Shown: positions 1 through 11,963 of the stretch, piece by piece | How positions within the stretch are numbered: position 1 is the first letter of the stretch | How the letters are laid out: each line of letters begins with the position of its first letter | Assembly: GCA_964643335.1 (NCBI GenBank) | Contig: CAZXSQ010000191.1 | Span: 1-11,963, forward strand | Direction: 5' to 3' | Length of the DNA stretch: 11,963 bases | From: an uncultured bacterium | GTDB taxonomy: Bacteria; Hinthialibacterota; Hinthialibacteria; Hinthialibacterales; Hinthialibacteraceae | The notes under the pieces: model-generated | Told to the model about the DNA's origin: nothing | What the model saw: only the letters and a program-made list of their open reading frames with translations | Database searches by the model: none | Made by a program: the position numbers and the translations under genes

Positions 1-402
1 TCTTCAATGTTGATCGGTCTTATCCGTTCATTTTGGGCATACATTTACATGGCTCCAAATTCATAGAAATGAGATTAAAATAACATGAATATCCCCGATT
101 TAAGCGGAGTAAAAATGGCGCATGGGTTCAAACGGCAGGATAATTTGGGGTAAAATTTCAATATACCTCAACCCATTACTAACAAAAGCCGCCGTTAAAC
201 AGGATCCATAAGAAACGACGCGCCAAAAAGAGAAAACAACTTATTATTATACTTTATAATATGTTACGAATCAATGGAATCGTTATTCATGTATAGCCGG
301 ATTAAAATAATGGCAAAAATGTAATCAGACATTAATAAATCAGGAGCATTTTTTCATTATAAATAATATAAAGCAATTAAATATAAATCATTAAGTATCA
401 AT

Positions 403-1230
403 ATGATGAATAAACTATGTACCCTCAAAACTTTCTTTTATTCCTGTTTATTTTTGGCGCATATTATCTCCATTCCATCGTATAGCGGCATCACTTGTTT
501 GGATACTGATCAAGTAAAGAAACTTAAATTGTTAACTCAAAGCCGAACCATGATGAGGAATGGTTCGGAGACCAAACAATTATATCCGCCAGTCTCAGAT
601 GCCACTCAAGAAATGTTCGTCTGGCGGCAGATTTTTGCCGATATTGTCCAGAACAAGATTTTGGCCAAATCGATATTCAGTTCAAGCCAGCCTGCTAAGT
701 TTTCTTCCCCTCAACTGGTTACGCTTTATGAGGAAGAAAAAGTGACAACCATTGATCACAAGCAAAAACGGATTTCTGTTCAAAGAATAGATGCCAATCA
801 GCTTGATAGAATTTCCCTAGTTTTTGCCGGCCGTTTGTATAAGAACAAGATCGTGAGTGATCTTATTCAAAATGCAAGCCGTGAAGGCCATATGATACAA
901 CAAGATGGGACAAAGATGTTTGATACGCAACTTCCAGGAGTCTCTGCGACTGTTACATTGTTTTTGAATAAAAAATTGCAGTTAACCAAAATCAAAGAAA
1001 ACAATCGAATAATAACTTATGATTGGAAAGAGACCGGAGTGGATAATTTTGCCTACGTCCATCATTCATCAACAGTAATATCTCAATCCGGGAAAAAATT
1101 CTATATTGAAGAATGGGTTCGGAACATTGTAATCAATCCACCATTCGCTTCGAATTTATTCAAAATCCAATATCCTGAAAATTATGAGATGAAAGATATG
1201 CGAAAGTTGCTTACTCCACCCAAATTTTAA
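403..1230 (+). CDS. Hypothetical secreted protein, 275 aa. The N-terminus has a K-rich n-region followed by the hydrophobic core FFYSCLFLAHIISIP, consistent with a Sec signal peptide. The C-terminal half is beta-rich and may have a LolA-like fold.
   Basis: Long ORF whose N-terminus looks like a signal peptide. GC is much lower (about 33-35%) than the rest of the window. There is no clear Shine-Dalgarno sequence before the tandem ATG ATG start, which lowers confidence. No family could be recognised by eye. Confidence 0.55.
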   Translation: MMNKLCTLKTFFYSCLFLAHIISIPSYSGITCLDTDQVKKLKLLTQSRTMMRNGSETKQLYPPVSDATQEMFVWRQIFADIVQNKILAKSIFSSSQPAKFSSPQLVTLYEEEKVTTIDHKQKRISVQRIDANQLDRISLVFAGRLYKNKIVSDLIQNASREGHMIQQDGTKMFDTQLPGVSATVTLFLNKKLQLTKIKENNRIITYDWKETGVDNFAYVHHSSTVISQSGKKFYIEEWVRNIVINPPFASNLFKIQYPENYEMKDMRKLLTPPKF

Positions 1231-1377
1231 TCGGTCTGCTATTCAAGGTATCTATATCCAGACTATTTGACTTCTTCCCATTAAATGAAATATATATATC
1301 ATTTATACTGAATAAATAAGTAATTTTATTTTTAAAATCGGTTTAATACTTGTGAACGAATAATAAACAATATTCAA

Positions 1378-1385
1378 AAAGGAGG
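1378..1385 (+). promoter_or_regulatory. Strong Shine-Dalgarno sequence (AAAGGAGG) 8 nt upstream of the EncFtn ATG. An AT-rich putative promoter lies between about 1260 and 1375.
   Basis: The sequence aaaaaggaggtatagggaATG is seen directly. TTGACT at 1266-1271 is a candidate -35 box. The promoter boxes were not assigned with confidence. Confidence 0.6.
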
Positions 1386-1393
1386 TATAGGGA

Positions 1394-1774
1394 ATGCCAA
1401 CCGGCTATCATGAATCAGAAGCTGAACTTTCTCAAGAGACCAAAGAAATCCATCGAGTTTTAGCGAGTTTTATTGAAGAATTGGAAGCAGTGGATTGGTA
1501 TCACCAACGGGTGGACGTTACCCAGGATGAGTCTGTCAAGGCCATACTGGCCCATAATCGTGATGAAGAAATCGAACATGCCGTGATGTGCCTCGAATGG
1601 CTGCGGCGGCATATGCCAAAATTCGACGAAGAACTCAGAACCTATCTCTTTACGAGAGACCCGATTACTGAATTGGAAAATGGAGAGGAAGAAGGCGAAG
1701 AAACTCAAACTGAATCCCAAGGGAAACAAGGGGGGACGCTCGGAATAGGAAAAATCCAAAAGGAGGAAAAATAA
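1394..1774 (+). CDS. Encapsulated ferritin-like cargo protein (EncFtn family), 126 aa, with a C-terminal encapsulin targeting peptide (…GGTLGIGKIQKEEK).
   Basis: The translation ...IEELEAVDWYHQRVDV...ILAHNRDEEIEHAVMCLEWLRRH...LRTYLFT closely matches the remembered Rhodospirillum rubrum EncFtn (…EELEAVDWY.QRVD…ILAHNRDEE.EHA.M.LEWLRR…LRTYLFT). It has the E…E..W entry site and the ExxH (EIEH) ferroxidase-centre motifs. The acidic, Gly-rich C-terminal linker ends in TLGIGKI, matching the family-1 cargo-loading peptide consensus (SLGIGSL / GGDLGIRK type). A strong Shine-Dalgarno sequence is present. The stop codon TAA abuts the downstream ATG. Confidence 0.88.
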   Translation: MPTGYHESEAELSQETKEIHRVLASFIEELEAVDWYHQRVDVTQDESVKAILAHNRDEEIEHAVMCLEWLRRHMPKFDEELRTYLFTRDPITELENGEEEGEETQTESQGKQGGTLGIGKIQKEEK

Positions 1775-2581
1775 ATGGTTGATATTCTCAGACGCTCTTT
1801 TGCACCTATAACAGAAGATGCCTGGAGTGAAATAGAAGATACCGCCAAGGATGTGCTGCGCACTTTTTTAACCGCTCGGAAACTCGTCGATGTCGATGGC
1901 CCGAATGGGTGGGAACAGGCGGCGGTCAATCTCGGCAAGCTCAAGGTAGTTCAAAATGAACCCATTGAAGATGTTCACTGGGGGAAGCGTGATGTATTGC
2001 CTTTAATAGAGTTGCGAATACCTTTTTTCCTGAACCAAATGGAAGTGGATACAATTGAACGCGGTTCAAAGGACGCTGACCTTGAACCTCTGGAAACAGC
2101 GGCTAAAAAAATCGCCAAATTTGAAGACATGGCCATCTTCAATGGATTTAAAGATGGAGGAATCGGTGGAATTCTGGATAGCTCGCCTCATTCCGCCATT
2201 CAATTATCCAATGAAGCCGATCAATTTCCAAAATCGGTTGCTGAAGCAGTAATCGTCCTCAAACAGGAGGGAATACCCGGTCCATATTCATTGGTGCTTG
2301 GGACTAAACCTTATGAAATCTTGAACCGGACAGTCGGATGTGGTTATCCTCCACAAAAGATGATCGATCAGCTACTTCTCGGTGGAGACACGCTATGGAG
2401 CCCCGCTGTAGAAGGAGGTGTGCTTATATCGGCACGAGGCGGAGATTTCGAATTAACCATTGGTCAAGATTTGTCAATTGGTTATGCCAACCACGACCGT
2501 GAGAAAATCGAACTTTATTTAACTGAAAGTCTTACATTCAGAGTGATTGAACCGGCAGCCGCCGTTCCGTTCACCTTATAA
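1775..2581 (+). CDS. Family 1 encapsulin nanocompartment shell protein (HK97-fold, linocin M18-like), 268 aa.
   Basis: The translation aligns along its whole length with the remembered Thermotoga maritima encapsulin (LKRSFAPLTE / [40 protein letters not shown] / [24 protein letters not shown]; C-terminal TFRVIEP / TFQVVNP). The ATG follows the EncFtn stop codon immediately (taaATG), and the AGGAGG Shine-Dalgarno sequence lies inside the end of the upstream gene, indicating translational coupling. Its size fits a T=1-type shell. Confidence 0.93.
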   Translation: [268 protein letters not shown]

Positions 2582-2601
2582 GATTACATCATCAAAAAAA
2601 G

Positions 2602-2646
2602 AAATTCCCCCTCATACTTGAATAAAATGAGGGGGAATTTTTCTTG
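2602..2646 (+). terminator. Rho-independent terminator closing the encapsulin operon. It has a perfect 14-bp stem (aaattccccctcat / atgagggggaattt), an 11-nt loop and a T-tract. An A-tract upstream makes it potentially bidirectional.
   Basis: The inverted repeat and the following tttttcttgatttt are seen directly in the sequence. Confidence 0.85.
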
Positions 2647-2760
2647 ATTTTATATAATCCTTGCTATCCACTTCAAAAATTTCCATAAATTAGCCATTAT
2701 AAAGAAGCTTATTGTATACAACTACTATCTTTTCGCCGCAGCGGCAAAGGGAGGACAACA

Positions 2761-4254
2761 ATGCGCACTACTCCTATTGGCATAGCCATGTTAAATGATG
2801 AACGGGAACATGTATGGAAAGAAAATAATCCGGAAAATATGTCCGTTGTGAACGCATGGGCCGACTTTATCAAAAAGAACCTTAAAAACATCGATGATTC
2901 GGCTCCGGAAATCATTACCGGCAGTGAGATTATCACTGGTGTCCGGTCAGCTCAGAAAGTTGGTGAAGAACTCGCTCGAGCCAATGTAAAACAAGTCATC
3001 ATGCTGTACAACGTTTGGAATTTCCCTTTTCTTTGCTGGCCTTTTTTGAACAGTATTGGGGATGTGCCGGTTTTAAGCCTATCCAACAATAATGGAGAGT
3101 TTCCGGGAAATGTCGGTCTTCTAGCCACTGATGGAGCTCTACGGCAGGCGGGAAAGCGTACCCACAGGATTATCGGCGATTTAGAAGATAAAAAAACACA
3201 AAACAAGGTATTAAGTTGGATTCGCGCCAGCCAGGCTGCTACGACGATCAAAAATGAGGTTTTGGGAAGCTACGGCGGGCATTCGATGGGTATGGAAACC
3301 GGCTTTGCTCATTTGACCCCAACATTGAAATGCCTCGGCACGACTGTCCGTCAAATCGATCAGCTGTGGCTGCTGAAAGTCATGGAAACCGTCGATAAAA
3401 ACGAAGTAAAAGAAGGCCGGGAATGGTTCGAGAAACTCTTAGGGAAACGGTTAAAATACGACGGCAAGATGTTGACTCCGGAAACTCTGGAAAACCAGAT
3501 TGCTCTTTATTTAGCCATGCGGGAAGTCAATGAAGACAAAGGCTTTGACTTCTGCGGTCTCAAGGGGCAGCGTGAATTGACGGAACATGTCTGTCTGGGA
3601 GATGTTCCCGAGATGCTAATGAACGATCCTTACGATTGGAATGGGCCGAAAGAATCCATCGTCTGCGCAACCGAAGCGGATGCCTATGCCGCCGTGACAA
3701 TGCAGCTGATGAAATATATCAGTGGAGGTCTTCCAACATTGTTCATGGATGTGCGGCTGTATCACCCTGATCTGGACATATGGGATTGGTGCAATTCAGG
3801 AAACCACGCCAGCTGGTTTGCGGCTAAAAGCATGAAACCTGAGAACAATTTCAAATCCATCACCTTCCATCCTGCGCTTGAATTTTATTTCAAAGCGGGG
3901 GGGGCATCGGTTGAGTTCGATGCCGCACCAGGGCAAATGACATTTGCGCGGCTGGGATTGTGGGATGAGAAGCCGTATATGGTAATCGTGCGTGGTGAAT
4001 CTGAAAGACTTCCCGCCGCTCAGCGCAAAAAACTCAATAATATGACCAACCCGACCTGGCCGCACGTGCACGCCAAACTGGAATGCACTTTTGATGAGTT
4101 TGCCGAAGTATTTCCATGCAATCATGTTTTAGGCGTGGATGGCGACAAGGTACAATCGCTGGTATACCTTTGCGAGATTTGCGGGATCGCCCCTGTTGTT
4201 CTCGGCAAAACCAAAGAAGGTCTGGAAACACCTATTTGGGAGCGAGTACGTTGA
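2761..4254 (+). CDS. L-fucose isomerase (FucI-like) sugar isomerase family protein, 497 aa.
   Basis: The translation matches remembered E. coli FucI blocks: [29 protein letters not shown] versus [35 protein letters not shown] versus [18 protein letters not shown] versus NSTWPTTWFAPRL. The conserved Glu (ATE) and Asp (DVR) are present. It has a strong Shine-Dalgarno sequence (GGGAGG). It is shorter than canonical FucI (about 590 aa). No sugar kinase, aldolase or transporter partner lies in the window. Confidence 0.8.
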   Translation: [497 protein letters not shown]

Positions 4255-4284
4255 TCTCCAGTTATAATGGTTTATGTATATTCA

Positions 4285-4305
4285 GGGGCATGAAGATCGT
4301 GCCCC
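4285..4305 (+). other. Small GC hairpin (ggggca-N9-tgcccc) between the fucI-like gene and the next ORF. It could be a weak terminator, an attenuator or an RNA-processing site.
   Basis: A 6-bp inverted repeat is seen directly. It is followed by tattct, which is not a strong U-tract, then by the Shine-Dalgarno sequence of the next gene. Confidence 0.3.
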
Positions 4306-4325
4306 TATTCTAAAGGAGAAAAGCC

Positions 4326-4763
4326 ATGACGGAGTTTCTTCATGGACATATTGTGAGAATATTGGATGATCAACGGCTGGTAATCAACCTGGGAATGGAA
4401 CAAGGGGTTTCTGTGGGGGATCATTTCTTTATTTATGAAGAAGGGGATGAAATCAGTGATCCACAAACGGGAGAATCTCTTGGACGCCTGGAATTGCTGA
4501 AAGCCGAAGTGGAGGCGGTTCACGTTCAGGAAAAAATAACTCTTGTGTCTCCTTTGAAAAAAGACCAACCTCAAAAACAAACCGTTCTTTCAGCCACGTT
4601 AGCCCAGGTATATCAGAGCGATACAGTCGGTGCGGATAAGCAGCGCGGTCACTTGAATGTCAGGCAAAACCAAATCACCGGACTTTATCAGGCTTCACCC
4701 ATTACCGTTGGAGATGCCGTTCGTTCAGCCAAATCCTGGGAAAGTCAACAGGATTCTGTATAA
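4326..4763 (+). CDS. Hypothetical protein, 145 aa. Its N-terminal 70 residues have a small beta-barrel-like pattern (GHIVRILDDQRLVINLGMEQGVSVGDHFFIY…DPQTGESLGRLELLKAEV); the C-terminal half is low-complexity and Q/S/T-rich.
   Basis: ORF with a good Shine-Dalgarno sequence (AAGGAG, 7-nt spacer). No family was recognised. The pattern loosely resembles FeoA/SH3-like or NfeD-type OB/barrel domains. Confidence 0.6.
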   Translation: MTEFLHGHIVRILDDQRLVINLGMEQGVSVGDHFFIYEEGDEISDPQTGESLGRLELLKAEVEAVHVQEKITLVSPLKKDQPQKQTVLSATLAQVYQSDTVGADKQRGHLNVRQNQITGLYQASPITVGDAVRSAKSWESQQDSV

Positions 4764-4788
4764 AGTGATTAAATAACTAATATGCCTC

Positions 4789-4951
4789 GGGAGGGCGAGA
4801 TGGCTCATCAGGAGGGTTTGTCTCAAAACAGGTTAGACACATGGGTTTAACCCTACATATGGTAGGGGTAAACCTATGTGTTTGCCCTATGTTGTGGCAT
4901 CCTCCTCATCTAACATAGTTTTGAGACAAATTCAGGAGATTCGCCCTTCCA
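4789..4951. repeat. Composite, multi-level imperfect palindrome of about 165 nt with MITE-like architecture. It has an outer stem (GGGAGGGCGAGAT / ATTCGCCCTTCC), then 13-bp perfect inverted termini (TTTGTCTCAAAAC at 4817-4829 / GTTTTGAGACAAA at 4918-4930) flanked by direct TCAGGAG repeats (4807-4813 and 4932-4938), then an inner 19-bp near-perfect palindrome centred on CATATG (4838-4880). The right arm carries an asymmetric insertion of about 28 nt containing its own 7-bp hairpin (ctatgtt…aacatag).
   Basis: All repeats were read directly from the sequence. The region is intergenic, between the stop codon of the 145-aa ORF and the asnB start. Confidence 0.55.
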
Positions 4952-4980
4952 TTTAACTCTGTATTGAAAAGAATTTATTT

Positions 4981-6790
4981 ATGTGTGGACTTTGCGGCAT
5001 ACTATACAGCGACAGACAAAAACAGGTCGAGCCAGAATTATTAAGAAAAATGACCGAGGTCATCAGGCATCGAGGTCCTGATGATGAAGGCCAATTAATC
5101 GACGGCTCCATAGGGTTGGGTTCACGAAGGCTGTCGATTTTGGGATTAAATGATGGCCATATGCCGATGTCTACGGAAGATGGAAACATTTGGATCGTTT
5201 ATAACGGTGAGTTGTACAATCACCCTGAAATCAAGCACAACCTATCTTCAAAAGGCCACAAATACCGCACCGGATCCGATACCGAGAGTTTCCTGCATCT
5301 ATATCGGGAATTCGATATTGAGTTTCTTGAGCATACCCGAGGTATGTTTGCTCTGGCTTTGTGGGACCGTCCGCGACAACGGCTTATACTAGCCCGGGAC
5401 CGGCTGGGGATCAAACCTTTATATTACCATCTTGACAGCAAAGCCATTCGTTTCGCTTCGGAGATTAAATCCATACTTTGCGATCCGGAGGTTTCTAGAG
5501 AAATCGATTATGAAGCGCTGAACTTATTTTTGGCTTATCTTGCCACGCCTGCACCTTTTACAATGCTAAAAGGAGTCAAACAGCTTTTCCCAGGTGAAAT
5601 GTTAATCTATCAAGAGGGACAGGTTCAAACACGAACATATTGGCAATCTTCCGAAACGATTATCCCTAATGATATAAAAAACATTGACTCTACAAAACAC
5701 GAACTGGGAGATCGTTTACGCGAAGTGGTTCAAGAACATTTGCTGTCCGATGTGCCGGTCGGGGCGTTTCTTTCAGGGGGGATCGATTCGGGCATTCTGG
5801 TGGGATTGATGAGAGAATTTCTCGGTCCTGGATTTAAAACATTTTCAATAGGATTTCAAGGACACACACTTTTTGACGAAACTCAGCAAGCCCAGTTAAT
5901 GGCTCGGCGTTTTGAAACAGACCATCATGAGCAAATTCTCGCTCCGAATGACTTACTGGAAGCGCTTGATGATATAATTTGGCAGTTGGATGAACCGCTC
6001 GCCGACTCTTCCTGCCTACCGGTCTACTATGTCTCCAAACTGGCATCGCAATATGGAAAAGTGGTTCTTTCAGGTGACGGGGGAGATGAAATCTTTGCAG
6101 GATACCGCAAATACCAGGCGGAATACTATCGCCGTTTTTGTTCTTGGCTTCCCTCCCCTCTTTTAAGATACGTCTCTCATTCAGTCGTACCCCATATTCC
6201 TGAATCCAGGGCCAATTATTGGATGGACCTGCTGCGGCAAGTGAAAAAATTCTTTCGGGGATTCGATCCGGATGCTTTTGAACGTCATTTGGGATGGGCG
6301 ATTCATTTCGAGGATGCCTTGCGGCATCCTATGTTGAATCCGGACATTCGAGAACAAATCAATTTCAATCAACCACGTGATTATCGCCGAAAATTGTATG
6401 ATGAATTACCTCACCAGGAGGAATTGAACAGGATGTTATGGGTGGATTTGCGTCACGGTTTACCGGCGGATATGCTCATGGATTCTTAAGGAAACATTTA
6501 AAGACCTTCTTCCACCTGAAATTTTACACCGCAGAAAACACGGCTTTGATGTCCCAGTGGGTGAATGGTTTAAACATGAATTACGAGAAGTTATAGAGGA
6601 TGTGTGTTCGGAGGCTACCACGAACCGCCGGGGGCTGTTTAACCCCCGGCAGGTCCGCCGCATTATAATGGATCATCAAGACGGGAGAAGAGATTATAAT
6701 AATCAATTATGGATTCTTCTTAGTTTAGAACTCTGGCAACGCCGGTATCTTGATTCAACGCCTGGTTCGATTCCATCCCGGCCCGTTTAA
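4981..6790 (+). pseudogene. asnB: Asparagine synthetase B (glutamine-hydrolysing, Ntn-amidotransferase class), apparently disrupted. Frame 1 stops at 6489 (…LPADMLMDS*) and the C-terminal segment continues in the +1 frame (…LKETFKDLLPPEILHRRKHGFDVPVGEWFKHELREV…LWILLSLELWQRRYL) up to 6790.
   Basis: The N-terminal MCGLCGI (Cys2 nucleophile), SGGIDS PP-loop and the typical C-terminal blocks are present. At the junction, about 45 residues normally carrying the conserved K-DRMSMA-LE-R-PFLD motif are absent and the frame shifts by +1. The Shine-Dalgarno sequence is poor. The combined size would be about 640 aa, like B. subtilis AsnB. Confidence 0.7.
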
Positions 6791-7718
6791 CGGGGATGGC
6801 TTTTATGATTCCCAAGCGGGATATATTCCCTTTTTTGCTTCGTTTTTCTTCCTCAGTTGTATAGATCACTTTGGCAATAATTCGATCATTGGCGTTCAAC
6901 GTGTTTTTATTAAACACCTCTTTGTTTACCCCCTTTCGCTTGAACCAAAGAAAACCATCGTAACTGTGATAGCGGAAAGTAAAGCTGTTGCCGGTGTAAG
7001 AGATATTGGAGAGTTCAACCTCAATTAATTCTCCTGGTATAACCCGTGGTTCCAAATAAATGATTTTTTCATGCCTTTTGTTATCGGTCAGCATCAAGCC
7101 AGGGATGTTGGTGATCTTTAAATTCAATTGATCACCGATATTGACATCGGAAATCTGCTTGATAAAACAACGATATCGCTGACCCAATGCATCCGTCAAG
7201 TTAAATCCGGGATTCCCTTCCAGTATCCGCTGATTATTCGTTTTTGAACGCCGCTGATCCACAACGAAGGCCACTTTGGGATTTATAAACGTGTTGATAT
7301 TTACTTCATCCGGTTCGATATAATCTGAATTGTTGGTTGCGAGAATGTCCACGATTTCTTCACAAATACTATGATTGGAACATTCTTCCGGCTTATGGTC
7401 ATGGTGCAAAAGAATCTCATGAGCCATATCATGCACAATCTTCGTCACGCCAAAACTCCACGCATTCCGCAAACGGTCTACCCATTGCTGTTCTTTTTCT
7501 TCGGACCAATCATCTTCGCAGTGAACACGCTCATTTAAATAAGAAAAATGCTCGGGCTTGAGCAATTCATAATATTTGGTCTTCCGCACTTCAAATGTTT
7601 GTTTGGCCAGTTTGAAACACCCTAATTCAAGCTGTTCCAATATCCGCTCGACGTAATAAAGTGAAACCTGATCATCGTCTTTGGTAGTTTGATAACTTTG
7701 TAGTATCCTGCTTGTCAC
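6720..7718 (-). CDS. Protein of 332 aa with an N-terminal SprT-like zinc-metallopeptidase-type domain whose motif is variant (…VTKIVHDMAHEILLHHDH…: HDxxH-x4-HH rather than HExxH-x5-H), followed by an uncharacterised beta-rich C-terminal domain of about 170 aa.
   Basis: The ORF has a GTG start and a Shine-Dalgarno sequence (AAGAGGTG, 7-nt spacer). Its N-terminal segment (ILEQLELGCFKLAKQTF…YYELL…NERV) and the His cluster resemble the E. coli SprT HELAHLLVWKHFG block. The function is inferred by eye only. Confidence 0.55.
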   Translation of the reverse strand: MTSRILQSYQTTKDDDQVSLYYVERILEQLELGCFKLAKQTFEVRKTKYYELLKPEHFSYLNERVHCEDDWSEEKEQQWVDRLRNAWSFGVTKIVHDMAHEILLHHDHKPEECSNHSICEEIVDILATNNSDYIEPDEVNINTFINPKVAFVVDQRRSKTNNQRILEGNPGFNLTDALGQRYRCFIKQISDVNIGDQLNLKITNIPGLMLTDNKRHEKIIYLEPRVIPGELIEVELSNISYTGNSFTFRYHSYDGFLWFKRKGVNKEVFNKNTLNANDRIIAKVIYTTEEEKRSKKGNISRLGIIKAIPVKRAGMESNQALNQDTGVARVLN

Positions 7719-7952
7719 AACTGAACACCTCTTAAAGATTTGTTCAACAAAGAGTGTAACAACAAGGTTCTTTTCGTATATAATTTACTTGTAAAAACTT
7801 GTACAAAGAAATATTTTGATTTTTTTTGATCCGTGTGAACTAACCCTTTTGTCAATTGGAAAACTTGATATTCTTTAACTGAAATTTCCATCTTATAAAA
7901 TTTATATATATTCGCTTAAGTATAAGTATGTTTTAAAGCCGGATGTGAAGAT
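7719..7952. promoter_or_regulatory. AT-rich divergent intergenic region, presumed to hold the promoters for the minus-strand SprT-like gene and the plus-strand micro-ORF / GT-C gene. Candidate elements are TATATAAT at about 7786-7793, TTGTCA at 7849-7854, and TTGATA…TATAAA at about 7866-7900.
   Basis: The calls rest on sequence composition and approximate sigma-A-like hexamers. The spacing is not canonical for any single pair, so no promoter is assigned precisely. Confidence 0.3.
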
Positions 7953-8120
7953 ATGAAAAAGGAATTGTGTTCAGCCATCAGTATAGCCAAACATAGAAAA
8001 TCATGTCCCTTCTGTGGCCGAAAGTGCCATCCGGCGCCTCAATTCATTTCTCAACCAATTCCCTCTGATCCTCTTTCTCGCGGGATGCACATACGTGAAG
8101 ATAAGGAGAATTCTGAATGA
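7953..8120 (+). CDS. Possible 55-codon Cys-rich micro-protein (MKKELCSAISIAKHRKSCPFCGRKCHPAPQFISQPIPSDPLSRGMHIREDKENSE). Its stop codon overlaps the start of the downstream GT-C gene (ATGA).
   Basis: The ORF is not in the supplied track, being below the size cut-off, but is open in frame 3. It contains a C-x11-CxxC-x3-CH cluster. It has a weak Shine-Dalgarno sequence. The stop overlap of 4 nt is typical of translational coupling. It could alternatively be a non-coding leader. Confidence 0.25.
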   Translation: MKKELCSAISIAKHRKSCPFCGRKCHPAPQFISQPIPSDPLSRGMHIREDKENSE

Positions 8121-11100
8121 AAAATCGTTCTAAACGTGGAGAGCCGCGCCTAACCAAGGCGCTTTCCGACTCTTCCCGTTATTGGCCGATCATTTCAATT
8201 GTGATTTTGGCTGTATGCATTCGATTATATGGTGTCACAAATCCGCTTTATGATTTGAATTACTGGCGCCAAACTGAAACGGCGGCTTTGGCCAGGAATT
8301 ATCATGAAGACAATCTCCCATTTCTTTATCCGGAAGTGGACTGGATTGGCCCTCACGGCCATGCCGAAATGGAATTTCCTCTTTATCCTTATATTCTGTC
8401 ATGGATTTACAGAATTTTATGGCCATCCGAAATATTCGGGCGATTACTCACTATACTCTGTTCTGCCGGTGCGATACTGGCCATTTGGGATATTGTGAGG
8501 CAAACGATCAACCGGCGCATTGCGCTATTAGCCGCCGCGTTTTTTGCCGCATCCCCCCTAGCGGTTTATTTCGGCCGGACGTATCAGCCCGATATGATGA
8601 TGGTTTTCTTTTCCACGGCATCGATCAGCTGCCTTCTACGCTGGATGGGAGAATCAAAAAATGTCTGGTTTTATTGCTCAGCGATTTTATTGGCTTTGGG
8701 CGTTTTGTTGAAACCTCCCTGCCTGCTTGTTGTATTACCTTTGTCTTGGATTTTGTATAAACAAGAAGGTCAAACATTTATCTTAAACAAAGAGAACTGG
8801 ATATATGCCTCGATAGTCATCGTGCCGGCCATTTTATGGTATGCCCATGCGCAAACTTTTTTTGAAGAAACAGGGGCGACCTTTATGTGGCACTTTAAAA
8901 ACTTTTCTGTGGAACGTCACCTTTTTTCTGTCTGGAGTTCTTTTGAATTCTGGACCACCATTGGTATGCGTTTCACTGATGGCATTCTTGCGTATGTGGG
9001 TTTACTGCCCTTTATTATAGGGATTTGGCGGTTGTTTTATCCTTGGCCTGGCCGTGCCTTGCTGGGCTGGTGGGTAGCCGGAGTTGCTGTATTTTACCTG
9101 GCCATTCCCGGTCATCATATCGGGCATACCTATTACTCACTATTGGCGATCCCACCTGCAGCTATCATTACAGCCATCGGATGCGACAAACTTGGACATT
9201 GGTTGAACTCCTATTTGCATTTTTCCTACAATTGGATTGTGCTGCTCCCTCTTATCACTGCAATTTTAGGATTCAGTCTGCTTATTTCCCGCAACTATTA
9301 TGGCAAACTCTATTATTACTACGACGATGCTCTGGCCCTGAGACAGCTTGTTCCTGAAAATGAACTCATCGCCGTCAAAGACGACTTGATGCATACTCCG
9401 GAGTTTTTTTATTTCATCAACCGGAATGGATGGCATCTCGCCAATTATCCTGCAAAAGGAACGGATAACTCGCCATGGATAGAAAAAGTTAGGAAGAAAG
9501 GAGCGGCCTATTATTTTGGATTAACTGAATTTCAAGGCAACCATCCGCTTCTTTATCTTCAAGACTATTTACACGGTCAATATATATGGGATCATTATGT
9601 TATCCAGGACATTGGATTCAAATATTTTGCCGCCCGTTTGGACCAACCGATTTATGGCAATCATCTTTTTTCTCAATATAAAAATAAAAAAATAGCCATA
9701 CCGGATATGGCCAGAAACGCTCTTAACGATCCTTCAATTCAAACCGTTTCATTATATGAGTGGCAGTCAGCCGATGCGATATTGCTGGATTTTCACAAGG
9801 TTCATCCTGAAGAAATGAACTCTATTCGAACTAATTATGAAAATGCTGCTGCAAATGGTTTTGTGGTGACTCATCAGGAATCCGGAAGATTGGTTCTTGA
9901 AAAAAGTGGTCACATTAAGCCGGTCACCGGTTTGATCGATTCGGTGGGATCATCTCAACTTGTACTTACTCCGCAACTTCCAAATGGAAGATTTTATTTA
10001 GGCTATTTTGAAAAAGGGCGGCATCGAGTCAGTTTTCGTTTCAGCCAGACAAGTTTTCCCGATCCGGTAACCCTTGCGGTTGAAGACCGCTTTGGGAATA
10101 CGATTCAGCAGCGTGTTTTGCAACCGGTTCACTTTCCACATCTCAGCGAAGGTGAACGGCCAGAGTGTATATTTACCCTTGACCAGCCTTTGGTCTTGTA
10201 CGCAGCCGCTTATACGGAAAAAGGCTTAATCCGTCCGGAATCCATTGTCTGGATGCCTGACGTGCAGTGCGTACAAACAGAAACGGTTATTCAAACTGAG
10301 CAGCTTCACACAAACATGGCCATGACGGTTACTGATGCCAAAGCTAACCGCAACAAGGCCTTGTGGGGATGGACAGAGGATGAACCTCGGTTTATCTTCC
10401 ACGGTCCTTTTTTCCATTACCCTTCAGGATTATATGAGATGGCTTTTCGTCTCAGAGCACCGAACAAATGGAATCCCGGTACCATAGAAGTGGGTGTTTA
10501 TGCAGACGGCAATACCACATTGGCACATCAAGAACTATATCCTTATTACTCCGGTGAAAATTCTCTCGGTAGGAAATACTCCAAAATACCTTTATCAGCG
10601 AGAATCCGCTCCACGTCAACCATTGAAATGAGAGCACTGCTGCATCCGAACGCCGAAGCGTTGATCGATACGATTCATGTTCACCAGCAAGCGAAAACAT
10701 TCAAACCGCGTGATTTGAATAATCCCTTGTGTCTTATTCCACGTGATGGACAGACAAAAATGATTACGCCGGACGGTAGAATCATCGGCCAAGCAGGAAC
10801 AATTCAACGAAGAGTACGGCTGGTGTCTTCACCCATCGCTTGGGCGGCGTGGAACCAAAATACAGGGGAACTGTATATCGATGAAGCCGGACGTATTATC
10901 GGTGAGAAGAATGAGGAATACTGGTCAATTCAAAGAGCACTTGAAGAAAAAATTATCAATTTTAATGTATCGCCAGACGGTTTATCGATAGGAGTCCTTA
11001 CCGATAAAGGCCGTGTTTTTATTTGGCATCAGGGTGAGATTGAAACTTTCACTATCCCAGCAACCGACTTTCCATTCAGAGACCTGCTGGTATTGGGTAA

Positions 11101-11392
11101 AGGTAAAGCCCTCGTGTTGGATAGGAATGGGGGTGTTATCCCGGTCGGGGAGGCACAAAAAATCGAGGGACTGCCTGTATTTTGGTCGGATGTGGCCCGT
11201 GCGTTTATTCATCATCCGGACGGTATTTATGTTGTAGACTGTCTTGGCGCGATTCATTCGTCATCCGGCTTAGAACCAATCCACTCACCGCTTTACAGGC
11301 CGGAAAATTGGATTATTGACGCCTACCGGATGTCGAACGGCATTTGGGTATTTTTATCCAAAACCGGCGAGATTCATACTTTCCAAGAATAA
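8117..11392 (+). CDS. Polytopic GT-C-fold membrane glycosyltransferase of the ArnT / PMT (GT39/GT83-like, undecaprenyl- or dolichyl-phosphate-sugar dependent) type. It has about 11-12 transmembrane helices in the first 480 residues, fused to a C-terminal extracytoplasmic region of about 600 aa that ends in tandem beta-propeller-like repeats. Total length is 1091 aa.
   Basis: The transmembrane helices are seen directly. The first extracytoplasmic loop (NPLYDLNYWRQTETAALARNYHED…PHGHAEMEFPLYPY) resembles the ArnT/PMT loop-1 signature (DE.RYAEIAREM….YFEKPPL.YW). A strong Shine-Dalgarno sequence (AAGGAGA) is present. The C-terminal 250 residues show recurring units of about 40-45 aa (TPDGRIIGQAG / DEAGRIIGE / DKGRVFIWHQGE / DRNGGVIPVGEA / PDGIYVVDCLGAIH / SNGIWVFLSKTGEIH), reminiscent of RCC1-like beta-propeller blades. 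Confidence 0.8.
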   Translation: MKNRSKRGEPRLTKALSDSSRYWPIISIVILAVCIRLYGVTNPLYDLNYWRQTETAALARNYHEDNLPFLYPEVDWIGPHGHAEMEFPLYPYILSWIYRILWPSEIFGRLLTILCSAGAILAIWDIVRQTINRRIALLAAAFFAASPLAVYFGRTYQPDMMMVFFSTASISCLLRWMGESKNVWFYCSAILLALGVLLKPPCLLVVLPLSWILYKQEGQTFILNKENWIYASIVIVPAILWYAHAQTFFEETGATFMWHFKNFSVERHLFSVWSSFEFWTTIGMRFTDGILAYVGLLPFIIGIWRLFYPWPGRALLGWWVAGVAVFYLAIPGHHIGHTYYSLLAIPPAAIITAIGCDKLGHWLNSYLHFSYNWIVLLPLITAILGFSLLISRNYYGKLYYYYDDALALRQLVPENELIAVKDDLMHTPEFFYFINRNGWHLANYPAKGTDNSPWIEKVRKKGAAYYFGLTEFQGNHPLLYLQDYLHGQYIWDHYVIQDIGFKYFAARLDQPIYGNHLFSQYKNKKIAIPDMARNALNDPSIQTVSLYEWQSADAILLDFHKVHPEEMNSIRTNYENAAANGFVVTHQESGRLVLEKSGHIKPVTGLIDSVGSSQLVLTPQLPNGRFYLGYFEKGRHRVSFRFSQTSFPDPVTLAVEDRFGNTIQQRVLQPVHFPHLSEGERPECIFTLDQPLVLYAAAYTEKGLIRPESIVWMPDVQCVQTETVIQTEQLHTNMAMTVTDAKANRNKALWGWTEDEPRFIFHGPFFHYPSGLYEMAFRLRAPNKWNPGTIEVGVYADGNTTLAHQELYPYYSGENSLGRKYSKIPLSARIRSTSTIEMRALLHPNAEALIDTIHVHQQAKTFKPRDLNNPLCLIPRDGQTKMITPDGRIIGQAGTIQRRVRLVSSPIAWAAWNQNTGELYIDEAGRIIGEKNEEYWSIQRALEEKIINFNVSPDGLSIGVLTDKGRVFIWHQGEIETFTIPATDFPFRDLLVLGKGKALVLDRNGGVIPVGEAQKIEGLPVFWSDVARAFIHHPDGIYVVDCLGAIHSSSGLEPIHSPLYRPENWIIDAYRMSNGIWVFLSKTGEIHTFQE

Positions 11393-11397
11393 TCTGA

Positions 11398-11784
11398 TTA
11401 TTCCTGGACTAACGCGACTGCCTCAACCTCAACATCCACTCCTTGCGGCAAGGCTGCCGCTTGTATGCAGGCTCTGGCGGGTTTGCTATCACCAAAATAA
11501 TTTGAATAGATTTCATTGAACACGTTAAAATTAGCCAAATCCTTCAGGAAAATAGTCACTTTCACAACGTCATTCAATGTTGAATCCGCCGCTTCAACAA
11601 CACTTTTTACATTTTCAAGCGCCTGTCTGGCTTGTTTTTCAAAAGAGTCCATTTCCAGTTGACCGGTTGCAGGATTCAACGGAATCTGGCCGGATACAAA
11701 CAAAAAGCCATTTGCTACCACGCCGGGGGAATAGGGACCTACTGGTTTTGGGCCTTCGCTGGGTGCGATTAATTTTTTTGCCAT
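11398..11784 (-). CDS. ridA: RidA family reactive-intermediate (enamine/imine) deaminase (YjgF / TdcF / L-PSP), 128 aa.
   Basis: The translation …GPYSPGVVANGFLFVSGQIPLNPATGQLE…VKVTIFLKDLANFNVFNEIYSNYFG…ARACIQAAALPQGVDVEVEAVA matches remembered RidA sequences almost motif for motif. The Shine-Dalgarno sequence AGGAGA lies 6 nt before the ATG. The gene is convergent with the GT-C gene, with only 5 bp between the two stop codons. Confidence 0.92.
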   Translation of the reverse strand: MAKKLIAPSEGPKPVGPYSPGVVANGFLFVSGQIPLNPATGQLEMDSFEKQARQALENVKSVVEAADSTLNDVVKVTIFLKDLANFNVFNEIYSNYFGDSKPARACIQAAALPQGVDVEVEAVALVQE

Positions 11785-11821
11785 GGTTTATCTCCTGGTT
11801 ATTCATTATACCTTTAACAAT

Positions 11822-11838
11822 GCAGGCGAGACGCCTGC
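11822..11838. other. Perfect 7-bp hairpin (gcaggcg-aga-cgcctgc) upstream of ridA, next to a TATAAT-like -10 element (minus strand, 11805-11810). It may be an operator-like or stem-loop regulatory element.
   Basis: The inverted repeat is seen directly. It has no flanking U-tract in either orientation, so it is unlikely to be a terminator. Confidence 0.3.
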
Positions 11839-11963
11839 GTTACCCCTTACGCCTGTGCTGTCCTTTTATTTTATTGCTCTTTCTTGCCGAAACGAACGGA
11901 GTATGTGTCTAGTTCTTTGCCGGTTGGAGTGGTTAGCGGGCCATAAAACTCCGGCCGGCGGGC

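Follow-up and report, generated by a model that had tools for sequence, protein, structure and literature searches.

What does a glycosyltransferase modify when some 700 residues of tail follow its membrane part, and what is the short cysteine-rich open reading frame (ORF) that overlaps its start? These questions are raised by a locus on an 11,963-nucleotide stretch of DNA from an uncultured bacterium of the phylum Hinthialibacterota (assembly GCA_964643335.1, contig CAZXSQ010000191.1, positions 1 to 11,963; hereafter the window). Outside the cytoplasm, enzymes of the GT-C class add sugars to envelope polymers and proteins, and what a given enzyme modifies is at present best judged from the domains appended to it. 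On balance we consider it probable that the large gene encodes a GT-C enzyme with a carbohydrate-binding module (CBM)-like domain and a propeller, acting on a cell-envelope glycan, and that the short ORF before it is a deletion remnant of a zinc-ribbon gene. Three elements define the locus:

7953..8120, plus strand, 55-codon ORF (from the ORF list and the sequence)
8103..8108, plus strand, Shine-Dalgarno sequence AAGGAG, read from the sequence, 8 nucleotides before the ATG of the glycosyltransferase gene and inside the remnant ORF
8117..11392, plus strand, complete glycosyltransferase gene of 1091 codons (1091 residues; from the ORF list)

An earlier interpretation of the same letters (the sequence-only reading) had given the coordinates of both ORFs exactly, and the ATGA in which it placed the overlap between the stop of the short ORF and the start of the transferase is present in the sequence. 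In the protein we distinguished a membrane part and a tail that DSSP, run on an AlphaFold2 model, splits into four parts:

8117..9289, plus strand, membrane (catalytic) domain, residues 1-391, about 11 transmembrane helices
8252..8254, plus strand, codon of D46, candidate catalytic aspartate, invariant in 15 sequences
9299..9916, plus strand, membrane-proximal, predicted periplasmic alpha/beta domain, residues 395-600, delimited by DSSP and by invariant columns
9932..10258, plus strand, beta-sandwich 1, residues 606-714 (AlphaFold2 models)
10277..10696, plus strand, second beta-sandwich, a CBM-fold jelly-roll, residues 721-860
10712..11389, plus strand, six-bladed beta-propeller, residues 866-1091, with blades of about 38-40 residues

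The assignment to GT-C is carried by family matches, fold and conserved residues. Pfam PMT_2 (PF13231) matched residues 88-239 with 71 bits against a curated cut-off of 26.1, and PMT (PF02366) matched residues 27-237 with 42.5 bits against 22.7; both hits lie within the first 480 residues and fit the ArnT/PMT-like transferase of about twice the usual size that had been proposed. The AlphaFold2 model, built from 15 family sequences (the window protein and 14 homologues; mean predicted local distance difference test score (pLDDT) 81.6, predicted template modelling score 0.65), contains a polytopic domain with a GT-C fold whose helix number falls in the range of 7-13, and a Foldseek search with it returned AglB, ArnT, AftD, STT3, PglB and ALG9/12 as alike, with E-values of 1e-10 to 1e-7. 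In the 15-sequence alignment the first periplasmic loop (residues 42-105) holds invariant D46, W50-R51-Q52, E54 and E84-M85-E86; R154, D159, K199, H333 and H337 are likewise invariant, the two histidines lying in a PGHHxGH loop whose H334 is kept in at least 90% of the sequences, and the pair K199-P200 is conserved. D46 lies five residues past the first transmembrane helix (residues 19-41), where the first extracytoplasmic loop begins and a conserved acidic residue is expected of a GT-C enzyme; its position equals that of the proposed catalytic aspartate of several solved GT-C structures (PMC11127046). By its matches the 1091-residue ORF is thus classed as a GT-C glycosyltransferase of the PMT_2/ArnT-like type, and its D46, judged by position, is the likely catalytic base.

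On which side of the membrane does the tail lie? Lysine and arginine account for 12 of 65 residues in the N-terminus and the even-numbered loops versus 8 of 121 in the opposite loops. This distribution points to an N-in/C-out protein with everything past residue 392 predicted to be periplasmic. The extracytoplasmic placement is supported because modules of the tail recur in secreted proteins that bear signal peptides, and it is reinforced because one of these modules has a CBM fold. The sequence-only reading had also put the extension outside the cytoplasm, and the charge count and the modules common to secreted proteins agree with it.

The part of the tail closest to the membrane, the alpha/beta domain, contains the best-conserved extramembrane motif of the family, D422-x3-H-T-P-E-F-F-Y (the last seven being residues 426-432), followed by G438-W439. 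Residues 420-450 are modelled at low confidence (pLDDT 50-58). This domain probably completes the active site. The beta-sandwich that follows (606-714) is optional within the family: members of about 880 residues do without residues 530-714 and keep the rest, a BLASTP alignment to P0017 skipping exactly this stretch.

The second beta-sandwich was more informative. When a profile of the tail was searched against 1.84 billion representative proteins, the stretch of residues ~721-855 was the best-matching part in 69 proteins among the matches listed, and in 39 of these 69 the CBM-like module stands at the C-terminus of a polytopic membrane protein. Pfam recognised DUF2079, PMT_2 or PTPS_related in the membrane part of some of the carriers; the soluble ones include CBM_4_9, PA14 and GxGYxYP glycosidase-like proteins. 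For residues 721-860 themselves, neither Pfam nor NCBIfam has a model. As a side observation, the module of about 130 residues has the consensus YEAExL…DxxASxGxA…GPYxxxPxGxYxAxFRLK…LEFR and occurs in one or two C-terminal copies in dozens of polytopic proteins (among them P0033, P0034, P0043, P0045-47, P0053, P0059 and P0113), most of which have no Pfam match at all. The carriers give the impression of many orphan GT-C-like enzymes with one uncatalogued accessory domain in common.

An extracytoplasmic CBM-fold domain on a GT-C enzyme, as found here, has precedents in EmbA/B/C, AftD and ORF12, the founder of GT136, whose CBMs bind the acceptor polysaccharide (PMC11127046). These enzymes, of which ORF12 is from Citrobacter, carry the module C-terminally and act on polysaccharides. 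We found no sequence relationship between them and the window protein, which differs from them in having a six-bladed propeller after the CBM and in lacking an adjacent gene for a polyprenyl-phosphate-sugar synthase or a flippase.

Residues 866-1091 are all-beta in the DSSP assignment, with 21 strands, and the model closes them into six four-stranded blades. A C-terminal beta-propeller of tandem repeats, as anticipated before any model was available, is thus what the prediction gives. RSL and AAL fucose lectins and YWTD domains were named alongside this propeller. Its blades have diverged so far that a BLASTP self-comparison of residues 861-1091 found no internal repeats, and the repetition is visible only at the level of motif, structure and external profiles. 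Among the Pfam repeat families NHL, WD40 and PQQ none matched the protein at E <= 0.01. The search of the Protein Data Bank (PDB) with the full-length profile returned no GT-C enzyme and matched only WD40 designs; the match to the bacterial WD40 protein 2ymu is weak, with an E-value of 4.5e-11 summed over stretches none of which is significant by itself. Six-bladed NHL-type propellers, including the extracellular sensor of M. tuberculosis PknD, resemble the domain in fold only, at about 12% identity and with no Pfam NHL match.

The relationship that could be traced was to a different repeat. Positions 459-533 of the tail profile, corresponding to blades 4 and 5, matched 67 secreted or anchored proteins among the matches listed, nearly all of them with a signal peptide or a single anchor. 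Their catalytic domains include Peptidase_M23 (9 proteins), Polysacc_deac_1 (3), SpoIID, Amidase_2, YkuD, CHAP and Peptidase_C39_2 (2 each), as well as GH25 and a small number of other glycosidases. One of the repeat proteins, P0041, retrieved at least 1802 relatives when used as a query, and 79 of the 120 listed have one of the following domains: M23 in 19, CHAP in 16, SpoIID in 13, deacetylase in 10, GH25 and GH18 in 6 each, NAGPA in 4, Amidase_2 and C39_2 in 2 each and YkuD in 1. The source names of the carriers point to Actinomycetota, Dormibacterota and Myxococcota. The repeat unit is about 42 residues long, with the consensus GYVLDGxGGxHxFGGAP…YWxGWDIARxLxL; no Pfam or NCBIfam model covers it, and no Pfam domain fell on the repeat in the 120 listed proteins. 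In P0032, P0037, P0039, P0041 and at least 1800 relatives it forms a regular array of 5 to more than 10 copies behind M23, CHAP, SpoIID, GH25, GH18, polysaccharide-deacetylase, Amidase_2 and YkuD domains.

The match is reciprocal. A hidden Markov model (HMM) of 93 repeat units recognised residues 999-1034 (independent E-value 4.5e-8) and 1035-1060 (0.004) of the glycosyltransferase, so that blades 4 and 5 (residues ~999-1060) resemble the ~42-residue hydrolase repeat in both search directions, and the periods, about 40 residues, are alike. The two differ in context and regularity: in the hydrolases the units are very regular and come after a soluble hydrolase domain, whereas the blades of the transferase are strongly diverged and sit on a membrane enzyme. 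By these profile matches the propeller is traced to a repeat family whose usual partners cut or modify peptidoglycan, and since they do, a role in targeting the cell wall is the most economical reading; the ~42-residue repeat itself is a candidate for a new cell-wall-binding propeller domain. We observed one further fusion, in a distant 801-residue protein, P0075, in which a PMT_2 domain precedes a propeller of the same type with five blades detected by the repeat HMM. There the propeller comes directly after the membrane and alpha/beta parts, without the two beta-sandwiches, and given this protein GT-C/propeller fusions may exist outside the Hinthialibacterota family as well.

How widespread is the complete architecture? 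Among 5.8 billion clustered proteins we found about 15-16 full-length homologues with 36-57% identity, and among the 1.84 billion representatives the family forms about 10 clusters at 50% identity. All named members come from Hinthialibacterota; the named sources, Ca. Hinthialibacter antarcticus and SURF_12, are both placed in this phylum, also known as OLB16 (PMC9324843). The family is rare, and we see in it a new combination of domains in an enzyme class that is already known. No description of a CBM-fold module and a propeller on one GT-C enzyme was found in the literature search, which also returned no GT-C/propeller fusion and no propeller-type cell-wall-binding repeat, an absence that is no proof. 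The protein links two uncatalogued recurrent modules, the CBM-like domain and the propeller repeat of well over a thousand cell-wall hydrolases, and knowing the ligands of both would help to annotate many proteins and inform on the envelope of Hinthialibacterota, a little-known phylum of which the sources mention no cultured member. For the window itself the relevance is modest, as it offers one enzyme, no donor pathway in view and damaged neighbour genes.

What, then, is the acceptor? The presence of the CBM-like module on GT-C-type proteins, together with the hydrolase-repeat blades, leads us to favour a cell-envelope glycan over a protein or lipid A. In the scheme that we propose, an inner-membrane GT-C enzyme would move a sugar from a donor, presumably linked to polyprenyl phosphate, to an acceptor at the periplasmic face. 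The alpha/beta domain would complete the active site, with D46 as the base, and the CBM-like module and the propeller would hold an envelope glycan polymer there, much as the CBMs of EmbC, AftD and the GT136 enzyme ORF12 hold their polysaccharide acceptors. Peptidoglycan is one candidate for this polymer; a polysaccharide bound to it or in its vicinity is another. In relatives, a presumably cytoplasmic double-zinc-ribbon protein of about 260 residues is encoded just 5' of the transferase gene on the same strand.

The sequence-only reading had suggested glycosylation of a protein or polymer rather than of lipid A. An acceptor other than lipid A is indeed plausible. An ArnT/EptA-like modifier of lipid A or of the lipopolysaccharide core, with the C-terminal modules serving for anchoring or regulation, is in our judgement very improbable. 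ArnT (GT83) and the bacterial and eukaryotic PMT enzymes (GT39) are, like the window protein, covered by Pfam PMT_2 and PMT; the window protein, however, is about twice as long, has no arn operon and no MIR domain, and carries a periplasmic tail of different modules. A PDB profile search gave no match to ArnT or PMT chains at E <= 10. NCBIfam contributed no ArnT model and a single sub-threshold match, to TIGR03663, with 58 bits against a cut-off of 126. Neither an equivalog-level ArnT match nor an arn-operon context was found in the window or in relatives, eight relative loci being without any arn-operon gene, and a 700-residue glycan-binding tail would have no role to play on a membrane-embedded lipid acceptor.

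The protein acceptor fared less well than the polymer, a cell-wall polymer being favoured through the repeat. A PMT/TMTC-like protein O-glycosyltransferase, whose propeller would recognise folded or unfolded periplasmic or outer-membrane proteins while the CBM-like domain reads glycans already attached, seems to us rather unlikely. A more far-reaching proposal, which we regard as unlikely, goes beyond the envelope-glycan reading: the family would be the core of an unrecognised periplasmic glycosylation of peptidoglycan or of a polymer bound to it in Hinthialibacterota. The transferase would dock on the sacculus by its hydrolase-type propeller and CBM and would work with an AsnB-type amidotransferase and the double-zinc-ribbon partner. 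If so, the ~42-residue repeat, which at least 1800 proteins carry and for which Pfam has no model, would be a new and widespread propeller domain that binds the cell wall.

Several points weigh against an enzyme acting on a cell-envelope glycan. The PDB profile search with the N-terminal 400 residues found zero chains even at E <= 10. Without a sequence match to a solved GT-C enzyme, residue-level catalytic assignments are made from position, and this null result together with the sub-threshold NCBIfam match is why we file the protein as a PMT_2-type GT-C enzyme and not as ArnT or PMT proper. For the topology, positive charges were counted by hand in the loops between the 11 transmembrane helices of the AlphaFold2 model (positive-inside rule), no dedicated predictor being involved. 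The repeat HMM recognises blades 4 and 5 but not blades 1-3 and 6, and the cell-wall link of the repeat is one of guilt by association. Among propellers with six blades, those of the NHL type also bind proteins and RNA, and that of PknD binds unknown ligands. In the window and in loci L012 and L015-L019, no adjacent gene for a polyprenyl-phosphate-sugar synthase (GT2) and no flippase gene was found, the two neighbours that mark three-component periplasmic glycosylation systems (GtrA/GtrB/Gtr*-like; GT136-like); both could lie at another place in the genome. Finally, the two internal deletions described below may both be assembly errors, in which case the remnant ORF would be absent from the real genome.

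We turn to the short ORF. The sequence-only reading had noted its cysteine cluster and suggested a small zinc-binding partner or a regulatory upstream ORF. The cluster is there (C18-x2-C21, C25 and H26, in the region CPFCGRKCHPA), and it amounts to half of a zinc ribbon: the 55-residue product has no second CxxC, no core and no second ribbon, and it gave no Pfam match. Both proposed roles gave way to another explanation once the neighbours of related transferases were compared. In L001 and in L002, which comes from the Hinthialibacterota metagenome-assembled genome SURF_12 (57% and 56% transferase identity, respectively), the gene directly 5' of the transferase encodes a ribbon protein of 258-259 residues. 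A CPFCGQKCHPAKxxCDxC ribbon at its N-terminus is followed by a helical core, then by a further ribbon (CxxC…CxxC) and by a tail that ends in …PPPIKSKPDL…FRGMY…; the stop of its gene overlaps the start of the transferase gene by one base. Ribbon homologues also precede the transferase in L007, L008/L017, L015 and L019, all with a C-terminal [RS]-G-M-H-x-R. Pfam gave a weak DZR_2/DZR signal on the full-length proteins. A word-based homologue search with the 259-residue protein found only 2 proteins, and the wider distribution was read from the loci.

Residues 1-28 of the L001 double-zinc-ribbon protein align to positions 7953-8036 of the window (tblastn E 1.4e-5; BLASTP E 3.8e-7), and the 55-residue product also aligns to the C-terminal tail of the ribbon protein (…PSDPLSRGMHIRE), with nothing between. 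In the ORF, about 28 codons of the N-terminal end (with CPFCGRKCHPA) run directly into about 25 of the C-terminal end (…PSDPLSRGMHIRE…), and next to seven full-length orthologues it retains nothing but the N-terminal CxxC…CH and the 'RGMHxR' tail at the C-terminus. Since it matches both ends and nothing between, we read the 55-codon ORF from these alignments as an in-frame remnant of a conserved double-zinc-ribbon (DZR) gene of about 260 codons that lost some 200 internal codons, encoding half of the first ribbon, the core and the second ribbon. As a zinc-binding partner the product is very probably dead. The stop/start overlap has been kept, and through it ribosomes that translate the remnant may still reach the transferase start. 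We also considered a conserved leader peptide or regulatory upstream ORF and rejected it: relatives have either the full gene of about 260 codons or an unrelated gene at this place, never a short ORF. In another clade of the family an unrelated conserved upstream gene takes the place of the zinc-ribbon gene (L003, 5554-6792; L011, 8957-9910); its product of 317-412 residues ends in …FSGSFYEWLCKA and has no Pfam match.

Does the pair stand alone, as had been supposed? The absence of a donor-synthesis gene from the window is borne out, the Pfam scan finding no GT2/GtrB-like gene there. The isolation is not, because two further genes upstream complete a conserved four-gene neighbourhood:

4981..6805, plus strand, asnB-like glutamine amidotransferase gene, disrupted (Pfam Asn_synthase/GATase)
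6720..7718, minus strand, intact gene for a 332-residue protein, divergent from the remnant ORF and transferase pair
6720-6805, overlap of these two genes in the window (7829-7917 in L012, 7595-7665 in L017 and 7727-7812 in L019)

The order asnB-like gene (about 645 residues), 331-residue gene on the opposite strand, zinc-ribbon gene and transferase gene is found in the window, L012/L013, L017 and L019, and is kept down to a transferase identity of 36% (L017). In these conserved loci asnB and the 331/332-residue gene, which run towards each other, overlap at their 3' ends by about 70-90 nucleotides. The 332-residue protein is 65% identical to the 331-residue protein encoded at the same position in L001, the position is also filled in L012, L017 and L019, and the protein has no Pfam or NCBIfam match. 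Other members of the transferase family have different upstream genes.

The asnB-like gene is damaged too. Its frame 1 runs to 6480 and frame 2 starts from 6440. In a tblastn comparison with the L001 orthologue as query, frame 1 accounts for residues 1-500 (at 4981-6480) and frame 2 for residues 531-650 (at 6440-6805), about 30-40 codons being lost at the junction near 6440-6490, among them the conserved KVDRMSM…VRVPFLD. Two internal deletions within 3 kb may reflect gene decay or an assembly error. This raises the possibility that the locus is decaying or mis-assembled and that the transferase is intact by chance, in a cluster that no longer functions here. Two of the four conserved cluster genes carry such deletions (the ribbon gene about 200 codons, asnB about 30-40 codons with a frameshift) and the contig is only 11,963 bp long, yet the transferase gene has an open frame throughout its 3.3 kb, retains all columns that are invariant in its 14 homologues and has a strong Shine-Dalgarno sequence before it, and its 332-residue neighbour is intact as well. 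We consider such a chance survival distinctly unlikely.

Two relative loci contain further genes next to the transferase. In L014 (7193-9365), directly 5' of the large transferase gene, lie genes for a 230-residue GT2 of GtrB/DPM1-like size, a 398-residue PMT_2 protein and an acylphosphatase. No other locus has a candidate synthase for a lipid-linked donor close by, and the GT2 gene of L014 adjoins the separate PMT_2 gene of 398 codons. In L017 (13585-16178), directly 3' of the transferase gene and on the opposite strand, are VanY/Peptidase_M15, GerM-domain and Amidase_3 genes, all related to peptidoglycan.

On the downstream side of the window the transferase gene runs head-on into ridA:

11398..11784, minus strand, ridA (Pfam Ribonuc_L-PSP, E 6e-41), convergent with the transferase gene across a 5-bp gap

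The gap is as the sequence-only reading had described it, and no terminator-like hairpin was found in it. Genes 3' of the transferase differ in L012 and L014-L019, so the ridA adjacency is not conserved, and ridA was rejected as a functional partner on this ground. Elsewhere in the window we recorded:

403-1230, ORF of 275 residues with no family match
1394-2581, EncFtn-like cargo gene (126 residues) directly followed by an encapsulin shell gene (268 residues; Linocin_M18, E 4e-85)
4326-4763, FlgT_C-like ORF of 145 residues, a marginal match (28.1 bits, cut-off 27)

The pair at 1394-2581 is a classic two-gene ferritin-encapsulin operon, and a fucose-isomerase-like gene is also among the genes of the window. 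The first ~1.3 kb of the window are markedly AT-rich, with a GC fraction of 0.32-0.39 compared with about 0.45 elsewhere.

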